Shown here piece by piece: positions 57,144-64,000 of a DNA stretch of 64,000 nucleotides (position 1 is its first letter; every line of letters begins with the position of its first letter). The notes beneath the pieces are model-generated. The model was not told the DNA's origin. It made no database searches and saw nothing but the letters and a program-made list of their open reading frames with translations. The DNA is from a virus (Duplodnaviria; Caudoviricetes), in IMG/VR virus record IMGVR_UViG_3300026549_000029, positions 128,001 through 192,000 of that record; one strand, given 5' to 3'. The position numbers and the translations under genes are program-made.

Positions 57144-57580
57144 ATTGCTATGTTCCAAAGAATGAAACAGATGTATGGGACTTGATATATAAAAATAGAC
57201 TCTATGAAGAGCTATTTTTATATCGGGCTGAAGCTGGATGCAGTATCTGTGAAAATGCATCTAATTGTAAGCCTACAGAAAATAATGAAGCATGTGAGGA
57301 TTGTTTAAATAATCCGCACAATGTTGTATCGAATTTTTCCATAAGTAGAATAACAGCTGCAAAGCTGCTAGAGCCTATGAGAAAAATTCAAAAGAGGAAC
57401 CATTTACTTTCTCTTATTATAGGAAAAGAAGGTTGCCCTCTTTGCTCTAGAAAAGACTGGACAGGGCTTATGGCAGCTTACTTCTTTGATGGTAATGGAA
57501 ATACCAGGTTTGGAGAAGTAAATGCTATGTTCTGTCCAATCTGCGGGAAAGAATATAACTATAATAAGAAAGCTGATTAA
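57140..57580 (+). CDS. Cys-rich zinc-binding protein
   Basis: CSIC, CEDC, CPLC, FCPICG. Confidence 0.7.
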   Translation: MNCYVPKNETDVWDLIYKNRLYEELFLYRAEAGCSICENASNCKPTENNEACEDCLNNPHNVVSNFSISRITAAKLLEPMRKIQKRNHLLSLIIGKEGCPLCSRKDWTGLMAAYFFDGNGNTRFGEVNAMFCPICGKEYNYNKKAD

Positions 57581-57627
57581 AAAAAAATGTGGGGGTAGGT
57601 TTATACCTATCCCCTATTTATTTTTTC

Positions 57628-58338
57628 TTAAAATTCTTTTAGATTATCATCAAATTCTTCTACAGTACCAATAGATACTAATCTATCTAAACTAACTTCA
57701 TTATCCGTATCTTCATTATCTTTTATATCATCACTAGTATCTCTGGGTCTAAATAATTTTTCATAATCATAATTATCATATCCTTCTTTATCAGCACCAA
57801 GTTTCTTAATAAATTCTCTATATTCATTTTCTTCTTCTTCTAATTCTTTAATATTCTTTTCTATATGCTCTATATATAAATTCAATAGTACTACATCTAT
57901 CATTTTATTAGTTCTAATAGTTTCAGAGAATACTTTTTGTTTAGATTCAAATGTAGGAAAATATGGAAATTTATATAAATAAGTAAGAGGATTTTCTAAT
58001 GTAGTATTAGGAATATATTCTATATGCTCTTCATAATCTCTAGAAAAAGAATTTTCTAGAGAAGCTTTAGCCATATCTTTAAAAAGATCTGGAGAAGTAG
58101 TATTATTTTTTAATATGTTTTTAACAAATTCATTTCTTTTTATATATTCTGAAACACATGATACAAAAGAAGGTGAATTAGCAATTCTATGAAAATTTTC
58201 TTCCATAATTTTAGCTTTAACCTTTTTATATCTAAAAAATTCTTCTATCAATAATATAAGGACTCCAAGAATAATACCAAGAATAAGATAAAGAGGATTA
58301 AAATTAGAATAATTAGCATCCATATATAATAAGTCCAT
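57628..58338 (-). CDS. Hypothetical protein with N-terminal membrane anchor
   Basis: LYLILGIILGVLILLI; AAAGGAG RBS. Confidence 0.7.
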   Translation of the reverse strand: MDLLYMDANYSNFNPLYLILGIILGVLILLIEEFFRYKKVKAKIMEENFHRIANSPSFVSCVSEYIKRNEFVKNILKNNTTSPDLFKDMAKASLENSFSRDYEEHIEYIPNTTLENPLTYLYKFPYFPTFESKQKVFSETIRTNKMIDVVLLNLYIEHIEKNIKELEEEENEYREFIKKLGADKEGYDNYDYEKLFRPRDTSDDIKDNEDTDNEVSLDRLVSIGTVEEFDDNLKEF

Positions 58339-58433
58339 AAAGATTCTCCTTTATATTATTTTTTATATAGATATTAATCATAAAATAAAAATTTAACACA
58401 CCAATAATTTAGTATATATAAAGGATGTAATAT

Positions 58434-59857
58434 ATGGCTATAATTACAAATCCATCAATTCCTATACAAGTACATTATGATTATAATACTAAAAATGAAT
58501 CTTTTATGAAAATGCATTATTTTCTTAAAGCTAAAGGTATTAAAAATAATGCATTTTTTCTACTTCTGTATGATGGTGGTCTTATGGGAGTTAATCCATA
58601 TGATCCAAATTTATCTAGAGAAATGAAAATAAGGATTCTTAGAGAATGTATTGTTAATTTTTGGTATTATATTAGAGAAGTAGCACGTATTCCAGTTGAA
58701 GGCGCTCAATCTAAACGATATGAATTACACAGAGCTAATTTAGCTCTAAACTATATGTTTGTGTATAATATTAATAGTATTAATATTTGGCCCAGGCAAT
58801 TTGGGAAGAGCGTTAGTACGATTCAATATTATCTGTGGTGTTTTAATTTTGGTACTCAAAATAGTAGAATCATATTTAGTAACAAAAAGCACGATGATTC
58901 TAAATCTAATCTTAGATTACTTAAAAACTTTAGATCTGCTTTACCAGAATACCTTAGAATGGATCAAGTAATAGGTCCAGATGGGAAACAGATAAGAGTT
59001 CCTAATAGTTCTGAAACATTGCAAAATCCTATAAACCATAATATGATATCAACATTACCTGGTGCTAGAACAGAAGCTTTAGCTGAGGGTGCAGGAAGAG
59101 GTGCTACAGTTCCCTTATTATATTTCGACGAATTCGCATTTTTACCTTATAACGACGTTGTATATGCAGCAGCAGCTCCTGCATTTTCTACAGCATCACA
59201 AAATGCTAAGAAAAATGGTGCACCTCATAACATAACAATTACAACTACTCCTGGAGATTTAACTACTAAAGAAGGTCAATTTGCTTATAATATGGTTTCT
59301 ATAGCAACACAATGGAATGAAGCATACTATGATTACTCATATGATAAATTAGTAGCATTAATGGAATCTAATAAGCAGTCTAGTTTCATGCATATCAGAT
59401 ACACTTATCAAATGCTTGGTAAAGGTGCTAAATACTTTGATGATATGGTAAGAATGTTTGGTACTGATTATGCTAAGCTTAGAAGAGAAATTTTAATAGA
59501 ATGGTCCAAGATATCTGATAATAGTCCCTTTAATAGAGAAGATCTTGAAGTTATTTCTTCTATGGTTAAGCAAGAACCTCGTTATACACTCTTCTTTGGC
59601 AAGGCCGGACAATTCCAAATGAAATTCTGGGATACTGTTCCAATAGGATCTACATATCCATTATTAATTGGAGTTGATGTATCCTCTGGTGTACATAGAG
59701 ATGCTTCTGCTATTACAGTAGTAGATTCTGAAACTACTAAAGTTATTGCTACATTTAGAAATAACTTTATTACTATGCCAGAATTGGCAGATCTTATATA
59801 TCAATTTGTAACTAATTATGCCAAGAACGCTATTATCTGCGTGGAAAACAACGGAGC
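58434..59857 (+). CDS. terL: Terminase large subunit, exon 1
   Basis: Walker A PRQFGKS, Walker B LLYFDE, TTTPG coupling motif, nuclease IGVDVSSG, CVENNG; late promoter at 58395. Confidence 0.9.
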
Positions 59858-60258
59858 AACTAAAGTCTCACCTAGTAGAGTAATCTGCTATGGTTTCAGT
59901 GTTAATTGCTATGACTCACTGGTTAAGAGCCAAACTTACTACAACGTAGCCTGAAAAGACAAGCGTGAATGTTGAGAAATCAGAAAGAAAAGTTTGGATA
60001 AAGATATGGTTAAATCCTAAGTCTTTGTTAGAAGCCAAGATATAGCAGTGAATTAGCTTCTTTATTTTTATAAATAAAATGCTAAACATTCAACGATCAT
60101 CTCCTTACGGGAGAGTAGAACCTCAAGCTTATGGAGGAAGAAAAATACTGCCCCATATCTTATATATGGGTGAACAAATGATCTGATCACTACTTATAAT
60201 GAGAGTGTCTAGAATTAACTAGAGGGTTTAGCTTGCGACTATTCCTAAACATAAATGG
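59858..60258 (+). mobile_element. Group I intron (401 nt, no ORF) in terL; boundaries uncertain by 1 nt
   Basis: P2 TAGTAGA-GTAA-TCTGCTA, P4 TTGCTAT/ATAGCAG, R TTCAACGATCAT, S AAATGATCTG, P7 GATCAT/ATGATC, P10 AACTAAA/TTTGGTT; removal restores the frame ENNG(A/G)FGSSV. Confidence 0.85.
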
Positions 60259-61066
60259 TTTTGGTTCTTCAGTACTTCAGATGTTGCTCAAAACTTCTAT
60301 TAAGAAAAATCTCTATTATGAAATTAAAGATCGTATGGATGAAGAAGTATTCGATGGTACAGCCGTACGAAGAAAAACTCGTAGAGTAAAAGTTTATGGA
60401 GGCACTTCTTCTAAGTCTACTAGAAATAAACTTATTGAACTTCTTTATCAAAGAGTGCAGCATCATAGAGATAAATTCAATTCTAAAGAAATATATGATG
60501 AACTTTCTACTATGGTAGTTAAACCAAATGGTAAAGTTGAACATGCAGAAGATGCTCATGATGATTTAGTATTCTCTTATTTATGGGCTTTATATATCTT
60601 TTATTATGGTGAAGATCTTGCCACAAGATATCACTTAATGAAGACTGAAATATATACAGATGATCATTATGATGAAACTTCTTATTCTCTTGAAGAAGAG
60701 TATATGGAAGGAGATAATATTGATCCTTCTGTATTTAGAACAGAAGATCCATCTACTCAGTTAGCAGATGAACAGTTAAAAATATTAAATTCTGTAAAGA
60801 GTATTACTTTTGAAGATTTATATAAAAAACAATTATTAGAAGATCAAAAGAGTTTGGATAAAATAAAGAGAACTCCTTATGGAAGAGAAGCTATAAGTAA
60901 TGCATATCATATACCATTAGACCATATAGAAAAAGAAATGAAAATGGGATATGTAGATATATTAGATGATATTAATAAAGAATTTTATGGAAATGATATA
61001 GAAAAAGATCCTAATAAAGATCCTACACTGACAGGAAATTTATCAGATTTATTTAATAGATTATAA
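60259..61066 (+). CDS. terL: Terminase large subunit, exon 2 (spliced product 743 aa)
   Basis: FGSSVLQML...GKVEHAEDAHDDLVFS nuclease motif. Confidence 0.88.
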
Positions 61067-61079
61067 AAAATAAATATAT

Positions 61080-61108
61080 AGTGAGGAAGGCTAAATACCT
61101 TCCTCACT
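61080..61108 (+). terminator. Intrinsic terminator
   Basis: AGTGAGGAAGG-loop-CCTTCCTCACT plus T tract. Confidence 0.8.
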
Positions 61109-61196
61109 TTTAATATTTTAATGTATAATCAAAATATAATTATATATTATAATATTGATAATAGAATATAGTTTTAAGAAAGGATAGTATATAGAT

Positions 61197-61532
61197 ATGA
61201 CAGAATTTACAATAAATATATTTTATTTAAAAAATTTTGGAGTAATAGAGTTTATTATAAATACAGACATAAATAATCCATATATAATATTGAAAGATCA
61301 GAAAGATAATATTATATCTGAAATATATCTTTTTAAAGCTGAATATAAATCAAATAAAAAATTAAGTAGTATTAATAAAAATAAATTCATAGAATTTTGT
61401 AAATCTATAAATTTAAGTATAAAAGAACATAATGATTTAATAGAAACAAATTGGCAATCTGCATTGCATACATATAATGTGGTAAATAATTTAAATATAT
61501 TATATAAAATGCCAGATTATAATTTATTATAG
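61197..61532 (+). CDS. Hypothetical early protein of the TNW...PDY family
   Basis: Early promoter at 61142; IETNWQ...KMPDYNLL. Confidence 0.7.
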   Translation: MTEFTINIFYLKNFGVIEFIINTDINNPYIILKDQKDNIISEIYLFKAEYKSNKKLSSINKNKFIEFCKSINLSIKEHNDLIETNWQSALHTYNVVNNLNILYKMPDYNLL

Positions 61533-61543
61533 GAGAAAATATA

Positions 61544-62734
61544 ATGAAAGAAATTTTAATCGAAGGAATGTATAATATTGCAAAATGCTTTTGTGTTGAT
61601 AGTGATAAATATGATATTGATCAATATGCTAGAGCACAGATAAAAGCAATATGTAATAATAAAGCATATTCAGATTGTAAGATCAGAATAATGCCTGATG
61701 TTCATGCTGGTAAAGTAGGTCCTATTGGTTTATCTATTATATATAATAGATTCCCTGAAAGAATTATTCCTAATATGATAGGATCTGATATTGGTTGTGG
61801 AGTTTTATTATATAAAATAAAACCTAAAAAGAGAATTACTAAGGGTTTATTACAGGAATTAGATAGTTATATTAGAAATATTATTCCTTATGGATCTAAT
61901 AGACAGAAAGATATTGGAAGTTTAAGATTTGGATTTAATCTTGAATGTGCTGTTGAAAGATTACATAAGAAAGGAATAATTAATTTTGAATTAGGATTAT
62001 CTTATGTAGGAACTTTAGGCGGAGGAAATCATTTTATAGAAATCGATAAAGATGAAGATGATTTCTATTATATTTGTATTCACACTGGTAGTAGATATTT
62101 AGGTCAATGCGTAAATAAATATTACAATGATAAAGGACAAAAATATCTTAAAGATAATGGAATCTTTAGTATTCCATATGAATACACTTATCTGGAGAAT
62201 CACAATTTAAAACGTGATTATCTTGAAAGCACTAGAGACTGTGAAATATTTGCAGAATATAATAGAAAGACTATTGCTAATAAGATCTGTAGTTTTATTA
62301 ATGCAGAGATTATAGATGTAATAGATAATTTTCATAATTATTATGAGAGCTATTCTAAAGATCATAATGAGAAATTTGTGATAAGAAAAGGTTGTATTGC
62401 ATCAGAATTTATTGAGAAGGTTGTAATTCCAATAAATGCAAGAGATGGTATTATTATAGGAAATGGAAAGCATAATGAAGATTGGAATTGCTCAGCTCCT
62501 CATGGAGCAGGTAGAATTATAAAAAGATCTGAAGTTAAAAATACTTATAATACTTCTATGTATAAGAAAGAAATGAAGGGAATTTATTCTACTTCTATTT
62601 CTAAAGATACATTAGATGAAGCTCCTTTTGCTTATAGAGATATTGAGCTTATTAGAGAAGCTATAGAACCTAGTGTAAATATTATTAATATACTTAAACC
62701 AGTATACAATTTTAAAGCTGGAGGAAATGAATAA
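61544..62734 (+). CDS. rtcB: RtcB-family RNA ligase (RtcB2-type by context)
   Basis: MPDVHAG, GSDIGCG, GTLGGGNHFIE, HTGSR, HNY, RKG, SAPHGAGR, DEAPFAY. Confidence 0.95.
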   Translation: MKEILIEGMYNIAKCFCVDSDKYDIDQYARAQIKAICNNKAYSDCKIRIMPDVHAGKVGPIGLSIIYNRFPERIIPNMIGSDIGCGVLLYKIKPKKRITKGLLQELDSYIRNIIPYGSNRQKDIGSLRFGFNLECAVERLHKKGIINFELGLSYVGTLGGGNHFIEIDKDEDDFYYICIHTGSRYLGQCVNKYYNDKGQKYLKDNGIFSIPYEYTYLENHNLKRDYLESTRDCEIFAEYNRKTIANKICSFINAEIIDVIDNFHNYYESYSKDHNEKFVIRKGCIASEFIEKVVIPINARDGIIIGNGKHNEDWNCSAPHGAGRIIKRSEVKNTYNTSMYKKEMKGIYSTSISKDTLDEAPFAYRDIELIREAIEPSVNIINILKPVYNFKAGGNE

Positions 62735-63340
62735 ATGATATTTAGAATATCATCAGGAATAAATCCGCCACCAGAGTGTAATATGGCTATTGATTTATTT
62801 TATAAAAGATTAATAAAAGAAATCAAAGATATTAAATTAATAGATTCTAAAAAATCTAAATTTTCTAATTACAATAGTTCTATAACTTTTATGACAGATG
62901 ATAAAAAGATTAAAGAATATATAGGAACTATAGAATGGATTTGTGAAAGTCCGATAAGAAAAGGTCATAAAAGAAAGAATTGGTTTATCAGTTTATCAGA
63001 GATACCAGAAGTTAAGATTGTAGATTCTGATATTAACTCTAGCAATATAAAAATAGATATATTTAGATCTTCAGGAAATGGAGGACAAAGTGTAAATACT
63101 ACAAATTCTGCTGTAAGAGTAACTCATATTCCTACAGGAATTGTAGTAGAGAATCAAGATGAAAGATCACAATACATGAATAAAAAGAAATGCTTAGAGG
63201 AATTGAATTATAGACTTAATGAAATACAGAAAAAGAATAAAGCCTTCCAAGATAATGAATCTTGGAAGATTGGTAATAATGTAATAAGAGGAAATCCTGT
63301 AAAGATATATGAAGGATTGAATTTTAAATTAAGAAAATAG
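62735..63340 (+). CDS. prfH: Peptide chain release factor homolog PrfH
   Basis: [44 protein letters not shown] (GGQ), DERSQ..NK; ~200 aa directly after rtcB. Confidence 0.9.
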
Positions 63341-63351
63341 TATATAAATAA

Positions 63352-63489
63352 CCATATTATAAATCAATTAATGGTTTAATTTTAACTAATTGGGAAGTTA
63401 TTAGCAAATCTTGGACAGATGCTTTTGGTAAACATTTATCTTATGCAACCATTAAGCCAGATTATACAATTATTAAACCTACAAAATAA
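63352..63489 (+). pseudogene. Start-less 3' remnant of a TNW...PDY family gene
   Basis: Open frame PYYKSINGLILTNWEVISKSWTDAFGKHLSYATIKPDYTIIKPTK* resembles the C-terminus of 61197..61532. Confidence 0.55.
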
Positions 63490-63505
63490 ATAATAAAAAT
63501 AATTT

Positions 63506-63529
63506 AGCCCAGAGAGAAATCTCTGGGCT
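63506..63529. terminator. Bidirectional terminator
   Basis: AGCCCAGAGA-GAAA-TCTCTGGGCT between convergent genes. Confidence 0.8.
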
Positions 63530-63536
63530 TTATTTT

Positions 63537-63938
63537 TTATTTAAATTTTTCTTCATCTAGAAAAATAATATTATCATATTTACAATTGTTTGGATTGCCA
63601 TCTATATTAACTACCTTACAACCTCTCTCTAAATAGCTATCTGGATTTCTTATATAGCTATAAGCCATAAGATCTTTAATAAGAAAGCGTTTTTTAGTAA
63701 AAGATTCTTCTTCTTTTCTTTTACATAATAAATTTACATAAGGATATTTACCTTCATATTCCCATCTTAAATATAAATCATCTGCTATGCAATAAATTTG
63801 TCCATTCTGTGTAATAATATATATACTAGGAAATACATCAGGATTAATTAAATGCTTTGCATCTATAACATTAAAATTTTCATACCCTCTGATGAAAGTT
63901 TTATTTGTTAATAGATCATAATATTCTTCCTTATTCAT
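63537..63938 (-). CDS. Degenerate NUMOD4/HNH-like protein
   Basis: YIITQNGQIY, YPYVNL, LMAYSYIRNP and VNIDGNPNNCKYDNI; the catalytic His position appears replaced by Asn. Confidence 0.6.
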   Translation of the reverse strand: MNKEEYYDLLTNKTFIRGYENFNVIDAKHLINPDVFPSIYIITQNGQIYCIADDLYLRWEYEGKYPYVNLLCKRKEEESFTKKRFLIKDLMAYSYIRNPDSYLERGCKVVNIDGNPNNCKYDNIIFLDEEKFK

Positions 63939-63941
63939 TTA

Positions 63942-64000
63942 TTATTTTAATCCAAAAGCTTTCATAGTATCTATTTCAGTTAACTGAACTGTACTATCAT
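63942..64000 (-). CDS. 3' end of a gene running off the window
   Basis: Frame DSTVQLTEIDTMKAFGLK* ends just upstream of the 63938 start. Confidence 0.45.
   Translation of the reverse strand, partial: DSTVQLTEIDTMKAFGLK

Follow-up and report, generated by a model that had tools for sequence, protein, structure and literature searches.

The window analysed here, a 64,000-nucleotide (nt) stretch of DNA, comprises bases 128001-192000 of the 287,868-bp IMG/VR virus record IMGVR_UViG_3300026549_000029, which is rated 100% complete by CheckV and has a GC content of 27.7%. It carries an RNA ligase gene, rtcB, directly followed by prfH, a gene for peptide release factor homologue H (PrfH). Based on the observations below, we propose that this pair is a phage-borne cassette that would act as an early counter-measure against a nuclease cutting 16S rRNA, by releasing and resealing ribosomes cut at the decoding centre, a reading to which we give a probability of roughly 0.55. 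On this reading, the cassette would be an accessory, early-expressed unit for ribosome rescue and repair in an uncultured jumbo phage of the AR9/phiKZ-like type. Collectively, its sequence suggests, rather than shows, that a phage repairs the ribosomes of its host during infection.

As described in an initial annotation of this DNA, an intact rtcB is followed by a GGQ-containing prfH: an open reading frame (ORF) scan confirmed both genes on the plus strand, rtcB at 61544-62734 (396 amino acids, aa) and prfH at 62735-63340 (201 aa). The rtcB stop codon, TAA at 62732-62734, directly adjoins the prfH ATG, and the ribosome-binding site of prfH, GGAGGA at 62720-62725 (plus strand), lies within the 3' end of rtcB, 9 nt before the ATG; translational coupling of the two genes is therefore implied. 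Together with orf111 (61197-61532, plus strand, 111 aa), the first gene of the unit and an orphan, they form one unit between two terminator-like hairpins. The upstream hairpin (61080-61108, plus strand; stem of 11-12 bp with six G-C pairs, then a T-run) closes the preceding unit of terL, the gene for the terminase large subunit, and has an equivalent 3' of terL in every relative examined. The downstream hairpin (63506-63529; 10-bp stem with six G-C pairs and T-runs on both strands) is bidirectional and is common to the cassette unit and a convergent HNH-endonuclease-like gene.

PrfH, as defined by NCBIfam TIGR03072 (InterPro IPR017509), is a protein of ~200 aa that comprises a ribosome-recognition domain and a GGQ domain, without domain 1 of release factors (RFs). 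The phage product, at 201 aa and with full-length matches to PrfH structures, has this length and domain arrangement. It matches the RF-1 domain at 2e-28 and scores 166.1 bits against TIGR03072 (cut-off 166.65), on which the Clostridia PrfHs of the same clade reach 142-162 bits. In phmmer searches of the Protein Data Bank (PDB), the best matches were 9mor_A (1.7e-30) and 7sa4_8 (1e-29), both PrfH chains on damaged ribosomes and both matched over the full length, whereas matches to RF1 and RF2 were limited to the shared C-terminal part. Similarly, the AlphaFold2 model of the protein (mean predicted local distance difference test, pLDDT, 88.6) gave 9mor_A and 7sa4_8 as the top Foldseek hits over its whole length (template modelling, TM, score 0.74-0.76), and RF1 and RF2 structures aligned to the model over part of their chains only.

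To read the residues of the phage PrfH against published ribosome contacts, we aligned it to E. coli PrfH (EcPrfH), in which R83, H86, R88, and R189 hold the 3'-phosphate of the cut A1493, while K89 and N90 form the patch for helix 18 and S12 (PMC9304027). In the phage protein, R75, H78, R80, and R185 align with the A1493 3'-phosphate pocket, K81 and N82 align with the helix-18/S12 patch, and the GGQ motif is G116-G117-Q118. Among 43 PrfH relatives, the equivalents of E. coli R83, R88, N90, and R189 are invariant, as is GGQ; the equivalents of H86 and K89 are kept in 41 and 42, respectively. EcPrfH, which is of the short type, releases peptide on damaged ribosomes only and is inactive on intact ribosomes; in the PrfH-CT type, a basic C-terminal tail also allows the rescue of intact non-stop ribosomes (bioRxiv 10.1101/2025.01.09.632186). 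Because the 201-aa phage protein has no such tail, it belongs to the short type, like EcPrfH, and assignment to the PrfH-CT type was rejected. Collectively, judged by its sequence matches and predicted fold, the phage protein is a genuine short-type PrfH. The matches, pocket, and GGQ thus bear out the earlier view of prfH as a gene for a ribosome-rescue factor, with peptide release as its predicted activity.

The partner gene encodes an RtcB ligase, joining 3'-phosphate and 5'-OH RNA ends, that scores 167.8 bits on Pfam PF01139 (cut-off 27; 6.4e-49). D82, C85, N162, H163, H180, R184, H264, H320, R324, and R328 of the phage protein align with catalytic positions of E. coli RtcB, and all ten are invariant in 47 sequences. 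We take these ten E. coli positions to be essential, as in the mutational literature, and H337, aligned with phage H320, to be the guanylylated histidine. The initial annotation had read the pair in the light of bacterial RtcB2, cluster 2 of Tian et al. 2022, which repairs cut 16S rRNA in 30S subunits and not tRNA (PMC9304027). One trait of RtcB2, being the operon partner of prfH, is present in the phage ligase, as the two genes abut. However, on the RtcB2 models TIGR03073 release_rtcB and PRK09588, the phage ligase scores 105.2 bits against a cut-off of 271.8 and 139.3 bits against a cut-off of 407, whereas PrfH-adjacent RtcB2s of Desulfobulbaceae, Comamonadaceae, and some viral contigs reach 348-545 bits. 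The pairwise score of the phage RtcB with an RtcB2 is 56 bits.

With E. coli RtcB as the root, 47 RtcBs fell into three groups in a maximum-likelihood tree: the RtcB2 clade (11 rows, 100% support, stem 2.5), a long PrfH-paired form from Bacteroidota, and the clade that holds the RtcB of the window (32 rows, 100% support, stem 1.71), which is separate from the RtcB2 clade. Based on the scores and this separation, RtcB2 membership was rejected. Besides the RtcB of the window, its clade contains standalone phage RtcBs (Listeria phage LMTA-57 and C. difficile phage phiCD211) as well as bacterial RtcBs, some unpaired and some, from Clostridia, paired with PrfH. The comparison with RtcB1 and RtcB2 that had been proposed as a check on the annotation thus gave a divided result: the clade does contain phage ligases annotated as tRNA ligases, namely those of the Listeria and C. 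difficile phages, but the same clade holds the ligases that Clostridia pair with PrfH. Metagenomic relatives of the phage RtcB include sequences that are ~50% identical (P0124-P0240). As a separate observation, RtcB diverges much faster than its neighbours: in one related contig (L004, 2749-3987), RtcB is 45% identical, compared with 78-80% for TerL and 72-75% for PrfH, and all catalytic residues are kept. Moreover, in Pedobacter and one genome of the Chitinophagaceae (L083:3527-5609 and L085:3569-5657), PrfH is paired with a third, longer RtcB (461-487 aa), which forms a clade of its own, apart from both RtcB2 and the clade of the window.

The pair also occurs in bacteria and in other viruses. 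In 399 sampled Clostridia genomes searched for a ~200-aa PrfH, only nine carried one, with RtcB2 as the partner in four and the window's ligase type in five. In the PrfH tree, nearly all PrfHs paired with this ligase type fall in one clade with 98% support, apart from the RtcB2-paired PrfHs. From the RtcB and PrfH clades together, it follows that the phage pair is part of a second, co-diversifying RtcB-PrfH lineage centred on Clostridia. The neighbours of the Clostridia pairs are ordinary chromosomal genes in two genomes; with no terminase nearby, a prophage origin of these nearest bacterial pairs was rejected, on the basis of two loci and five genomes only.

Among viruses, 18 IMG/VR contigs, several of them 160-600 kb long, have rtcB directly or closely upstream of prfH; 13 carry the window's ligase type and five carry RtcB2. 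Of 50,697 GenBank phage records, 663 contain an RtcB and none covers at least 80% of this PrfH, so that the survey suggested earlier found no full-length PrfH in GenBank phages and the pair in the 18 IMG/VR contigs. A scan of genome contigs with the PrfH alignment, whose pattern included GGQ, was dominated by RF1 and RF2 and returned few true PrfH loci. In a 166-kb viral contig (L005:4990-5976), ~1 kb separates rtcB from prfH, with many stops in the frame read; this spacer may be an inserted element or non-coding DNA. In five further viral loci with a PrfH-like gene of ~205 aa (L017, L019, L020, L021, and L022), no RtcB was detectable in the available flanks.

The pair lies between terL on its left (58434-61066, plus strand; PHROG 1.7e-54) and the HNH-endonuclease-like gene on its right (63537-63938, minus strand, 133 aa; weak PHROG HNH matches, 1.7e-4). 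The GC contents of rtcB and prfH are 0.27 and 0.26, against 0.277 for the genome, and their GC and GC at third codon positions (GC3) fall in the middle of the genome distribution. The order terL-rtcB-prfH-HNH is kept in four related IMG/VR contigs (L003/L207, L004, L007/L211, and L009/L210) whose TerLs are 66-80% identical to that of the window; L009/L210 is a 270,993-bp genome with terminal repeats. Because the composition matches, the flanks are terL and the HNH-like gene, and the gene order recurs in relatives, the pair is resident in the phage, neither a host insert nor a chimera. Phage-like composition and a gene order shared with independent contigs contradict the concern, raised with the initial annotation, that read coverage might reveal a chimeric insert.

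The place between terL and the HNH-like gene is a slot with variable content, of which homologues of the HNH-like gene form the right border in L205-L212. In the nearest relative, a 274-kb contig with a TerL 86% identical, the slot is empty, with terL, one hairpin, and the HNH-like gene in succession. In three other relatives (L208:5428-7451, L209:5430-7292, and L212:5476-7034), it is filled by two or three other genes, again preceded by a promoter of the same type. This alternative cargo comprises a 124-126-aa protein with LPD28 ("large polyvalent protein associated domain 28") and two genes without assigned function (~150 aa and 327-354 aa). Wherever cargo is present, the layout is the same: terL stop, hairpin, promoter motif, ribosome-binding site, and first gene. 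The cassette is accessory cargo, and probably swappable.

The promoter motif of the unit, ATATATTAT-N6-G, lies at 61142-61157 on the plus strand, with a predicted +1 at G61157. In AR9, a Bacillus jumbo phage, the early promoter consensus is AAATATATATTAT-(6N)-G, which is read by the virion RNA polymerase (PMC5312081). The motif at 61142-61157 fits this consensus in being AT-rich, in its TATTAT end, in the 6-nt spacing, and in the G start. Its 14-nt core, ATATTATAAT-WW-TG, occurs 27 times in the genome compared with 0.4 +/- 0.7 expected from Markov simulations, a ~60-fold excess; 24 of the 27 copies are on the plus strand, and 22 lie 10-130 nt upstream of an ORF start. The earlier call of an early-type promoter at 61142 is thus real as a motif, one that fits the AR9 consensus and is over-represented upstream of ORFs. 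The same motif precedes the slot cargo in L207, L209, and L212, and a variant does so in L208 and L210. No late-type AACA-N6-TR motif was found upstream of the unit, and a sigma-70 promoter scan gave 55 sites against 48.5 +/- 6.7, no better than chance. The genome encodes two beta-like RNA polymerase genes. Based on the resemblance to AR9-type promoters, transcription of the cassette would probably be early. Across the genome, the ATATTATAAT-WW-TG copies make up a set of phage promoters similar to the early ones of AR9.

We infer the activities, substrates, timing, and attacker in the following scheme from these features. Soon after DNA entry, the virion RNA polymerase would start near G61157 and produce an mRNA of ~2.4 kb, covering orf111, rtcB, and prfH and ending at the hairpin at 63506-63529. 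On a ribosome cut at the decoding centre, the PrfH pocket of R75, H78, R80, and R185 would grip the 3'-phosphate end, and the GGQ would hydrolyse the peptidyl-tRNA, so that the subunits could part. RtcB, guanylylated at H320, would then join the 2',3'-cyclic or 3'-phosphate end to the 5'-OH end. The phage would benefit in that translation goes on when a nuclease of the host, a prophage, or a competitor attacks the decoding centre.

Several findings weigh against this proposal. The PrfH score lies 0.5 bits below the NCBIfam TIGR03072 cut-off. The residues that sandwich C1914 of 23S rRNA are changed, with E. coli H184 replaced by G180 and R52 by N47 or S48; histidine stands at the H184 position in 35 of the 43 PrfH relatives, and G180 together with a proline in the loop over the adenine is common to the phage PrfH and its closest phage relatives. 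Likewise, H85 of E. coli PrfH, which contacts C1054, corresponds to G77 in the phage. The ligase lies outside the clade shown to repair 30S subunits, and its specificity for 16S rRNA is unproven because phage RtcBs that stand alone, and are usually taken for tRNA ligases, fall in its own clade. Moreover, the closest relative of the phage does without the cassette. We found no report of an anti-phage system cutting at A1493/G1494, and the HEPN defence nuclease of Retron-Kva2 cuts rRNA elsewhere.

The chief competitor of the proposed role, which we regard as a possible but clearly less probable explanation, is a general RNA-repair unit. The main task of the ligase would then be to repair tRNAs, or other RNAs, after cleavage by anticodon nucleases, the role assumed for standalone phage RtcBs, and PrfH would only clear stalled ribosomes or deal with the occasional 16S cut. 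Such a function would suit the grouping of the ligase with the standalone RtcBs of LMTA-57 and phiCD211 in one clade (100% support). phiCD211 has a PTH2 peptidyl-tRNA hydrolase 1.1 kb upstream of its RtcB, another layout of rescue plus ligase. RtcB would also be the sole RNA ligase of the phage, as no other was convincingly detected in the genome: a search for Rnl1 (PF09511) gave no match, although the controls were silent too, so that absence is not shown, and a search for PF09414 gave only a sub-threshold match in a 930-aa frame. However, the pocket for the 3'-phosphate of cut A1493 is fully conserved in the phage PrfH, E. coli PrfH is inactive on intact ribosomes according to published work, and, in bacteria as well as phages, this ligase type and its PrfH diversify together.

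It is quite improbable that the pair is a mere passenger in a recombination hot spot and brings the phage little or no advantage. The empty slot in the closest relative (TerL 86%), the unrelated genes in three others, and the orphan status of orf111 are compatible with a passenger. In contrast, both genes are intact, their catalytic and pocket residues are kept across relatives with TerLs at 66-68%, their composition is fully phage-like, and a dedicated promoter and terminator are kept in the relatives. Still less probable is a scheme in which host translation is shut off through ribosome cleavage by the phage's own means and the pair undoes the damage at a later stage. This has no direct support and is conceivable only if cutting and resealing form a reversible switch; an early-type promoter on the repair genes fits late reversal poorly, and no match to a colicin E3-type domain (PF09000) was found in the genome, which is weak evidence, as all control genomes were silent too. 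Finally, a host insert arising from misassembly or contamination, to which the description of PrfH otherwise only in bacteria might point, has a negligible probability and was rejected, given the phage-like GC (0.27 and 0.26 against 0.277), the recurrence of this gene order, with the same phage genes on either side, in contigs assembled independently from different samples, one of them a complete 271-kb genome, and the phage-type promoter and terminators that flank the pair.

Among described systems, the proposed early ribosome-repair cassette most resembles the RtcB2-PrfH operon of E. coli ATCC 25922 (Tian et al. 2022, PMC9304027; PMC9223846; PMC13166195), with which it shares the order of rtcB then prfH, tight coupling, a short PrfH with GGQ and the A1493 3'-phosphate pocket, and a complete RtcB active site. 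In contrast to that operon, the phage pair is virus-borne, is known here from sequence, and has a phage early-type promoter and an extra orphan gene ahead; its ligase is of another RtcB clade, far below the TIGR03073 and PRK09588 cut-offs, and the residues of the C1914 pocket differ. The nearest cellular relatives are the Clostridia pairs (L175-L179; RtcB 286-310 bits), which have the same RtcB clade, the same PrfH clade, and the same adjacency; they differ in being chromosomal, with ordinary neighbours and no terminase found near, and are ~40-50% identical. The PrfH of Capnocytophaga gingivalis (CgPrfH/PrfH-CT; PDB 9mor; bioRxiv 10.1101/2025.01.09.632186) is the best PDB match in sequence and fold and has the same ribosome-recognition and GGQ domains, but the 201-aa phage protein is without its basic C-terminal tail.

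Phage counterparts of the parts of the cassette are also known. T4 Pnkp/Rnl1 is the paradigm of phage tRNA repair, and known phage RNA repair concerns tRNAs; T4 likewise encodes RNA repair against host ribonucleases, without a PrfH. The standalone RtcBs of Listeria Pecentumvirus and phiCD211 are of the same RtcB clade as the ligase of the window, and phage RNA repair is seen as a counter to host ribonucleases; however, these phages have no PrfH, and phiCD211 has PTH2 instead. The RF-1 domain proteins of Bixzunavirus (e.g., Cali gp203) are GGQ-type domains in a phage group that also carries RtcB, but they have 110 aa with the GGQ domain only and lie between DnaE and RecA genes, not beside RtcB. 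In the literature, published work on PrfH and RtcB2 describes a bacterial system, with the statement that PrfH is confined to bacteria (PMC9304027). The word "phage" is absent from a release-factor review in which prfH-RtcB is discussed as a conflict system, and RtcB and PTH2, but no PrfH, are listed in a comparison of 224 jumbo phages. As we found no account of a phage PrfH, the earlier remark that a rescue-plus-repair pair in a phage is little described holds.

A conserved, promoter-equipped PrfH-RtcB cassette in giant phages would imply that cutting of the decoding centre is a selective pressure during infection, and it points to a kind of defence, or of aggression between microbes directed at infected cells, not yet tied to phages. 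More tentatively, and with clearly lower confidence than in the role of the cassette itself, gut or rumen Clostridia, their prophages, or their competitors might use an undescribed 16S decoding-centre nuclease against phages, which jumbo phages would answer with an early, swappable PrfH-RtcB cassette. In that case, the ligase clade would be a second, independent lineage of ribosome-repair ligases, and the cassette would be the first viral system repairing ribosomes rather than tRNAs. As partners of PrfH come from no fewer than three distinct RtcB clades, the range of substrates ascribed to "RtcB2" may exceed one clade. The slot polymorphism, with empty, rtcB-prfH, and other-cargo versions, provides natural comparisons ready for testing.

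Within the unit, orf111 had no Pfam, NCBIfam, or PHROG match, and its single relative among 5.8 billion proteins was a metagenomic sequence 97% identical. A role for it as a conserved third component was rejected, as it is absent from related loci and has only this near-identical relative. Between the prfH stop and the terminator lies a 165-nt untranslated stretch (63341-63505) that includes a small hairpin at 63350-63376 and may contain the tail of a lost gene. At the equivalent point downstream of prfH, L207 has another early-type promoter and a gene. An Rfam scan of 57500-64000 gave nothing above threshold.

Upstream of the unit, terL is divided into two pieces, 58434-59858 and 60257-61066, by an insert of ~398 nt at 59859-60256, which has no Rfam match and a folding z-score of -1.9. 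Both pieces align with the 745-aa TerL of L003, which is uninterrupted, and they join at its residue 478. TerL is likewise uninterrupted in L009, whereas L004 and L007 have a homologous insert at the same spot of terL. As L007, with the insert, and L009, without it, are otherwise near-identical, the insert is mobile, and it is probably an intron.

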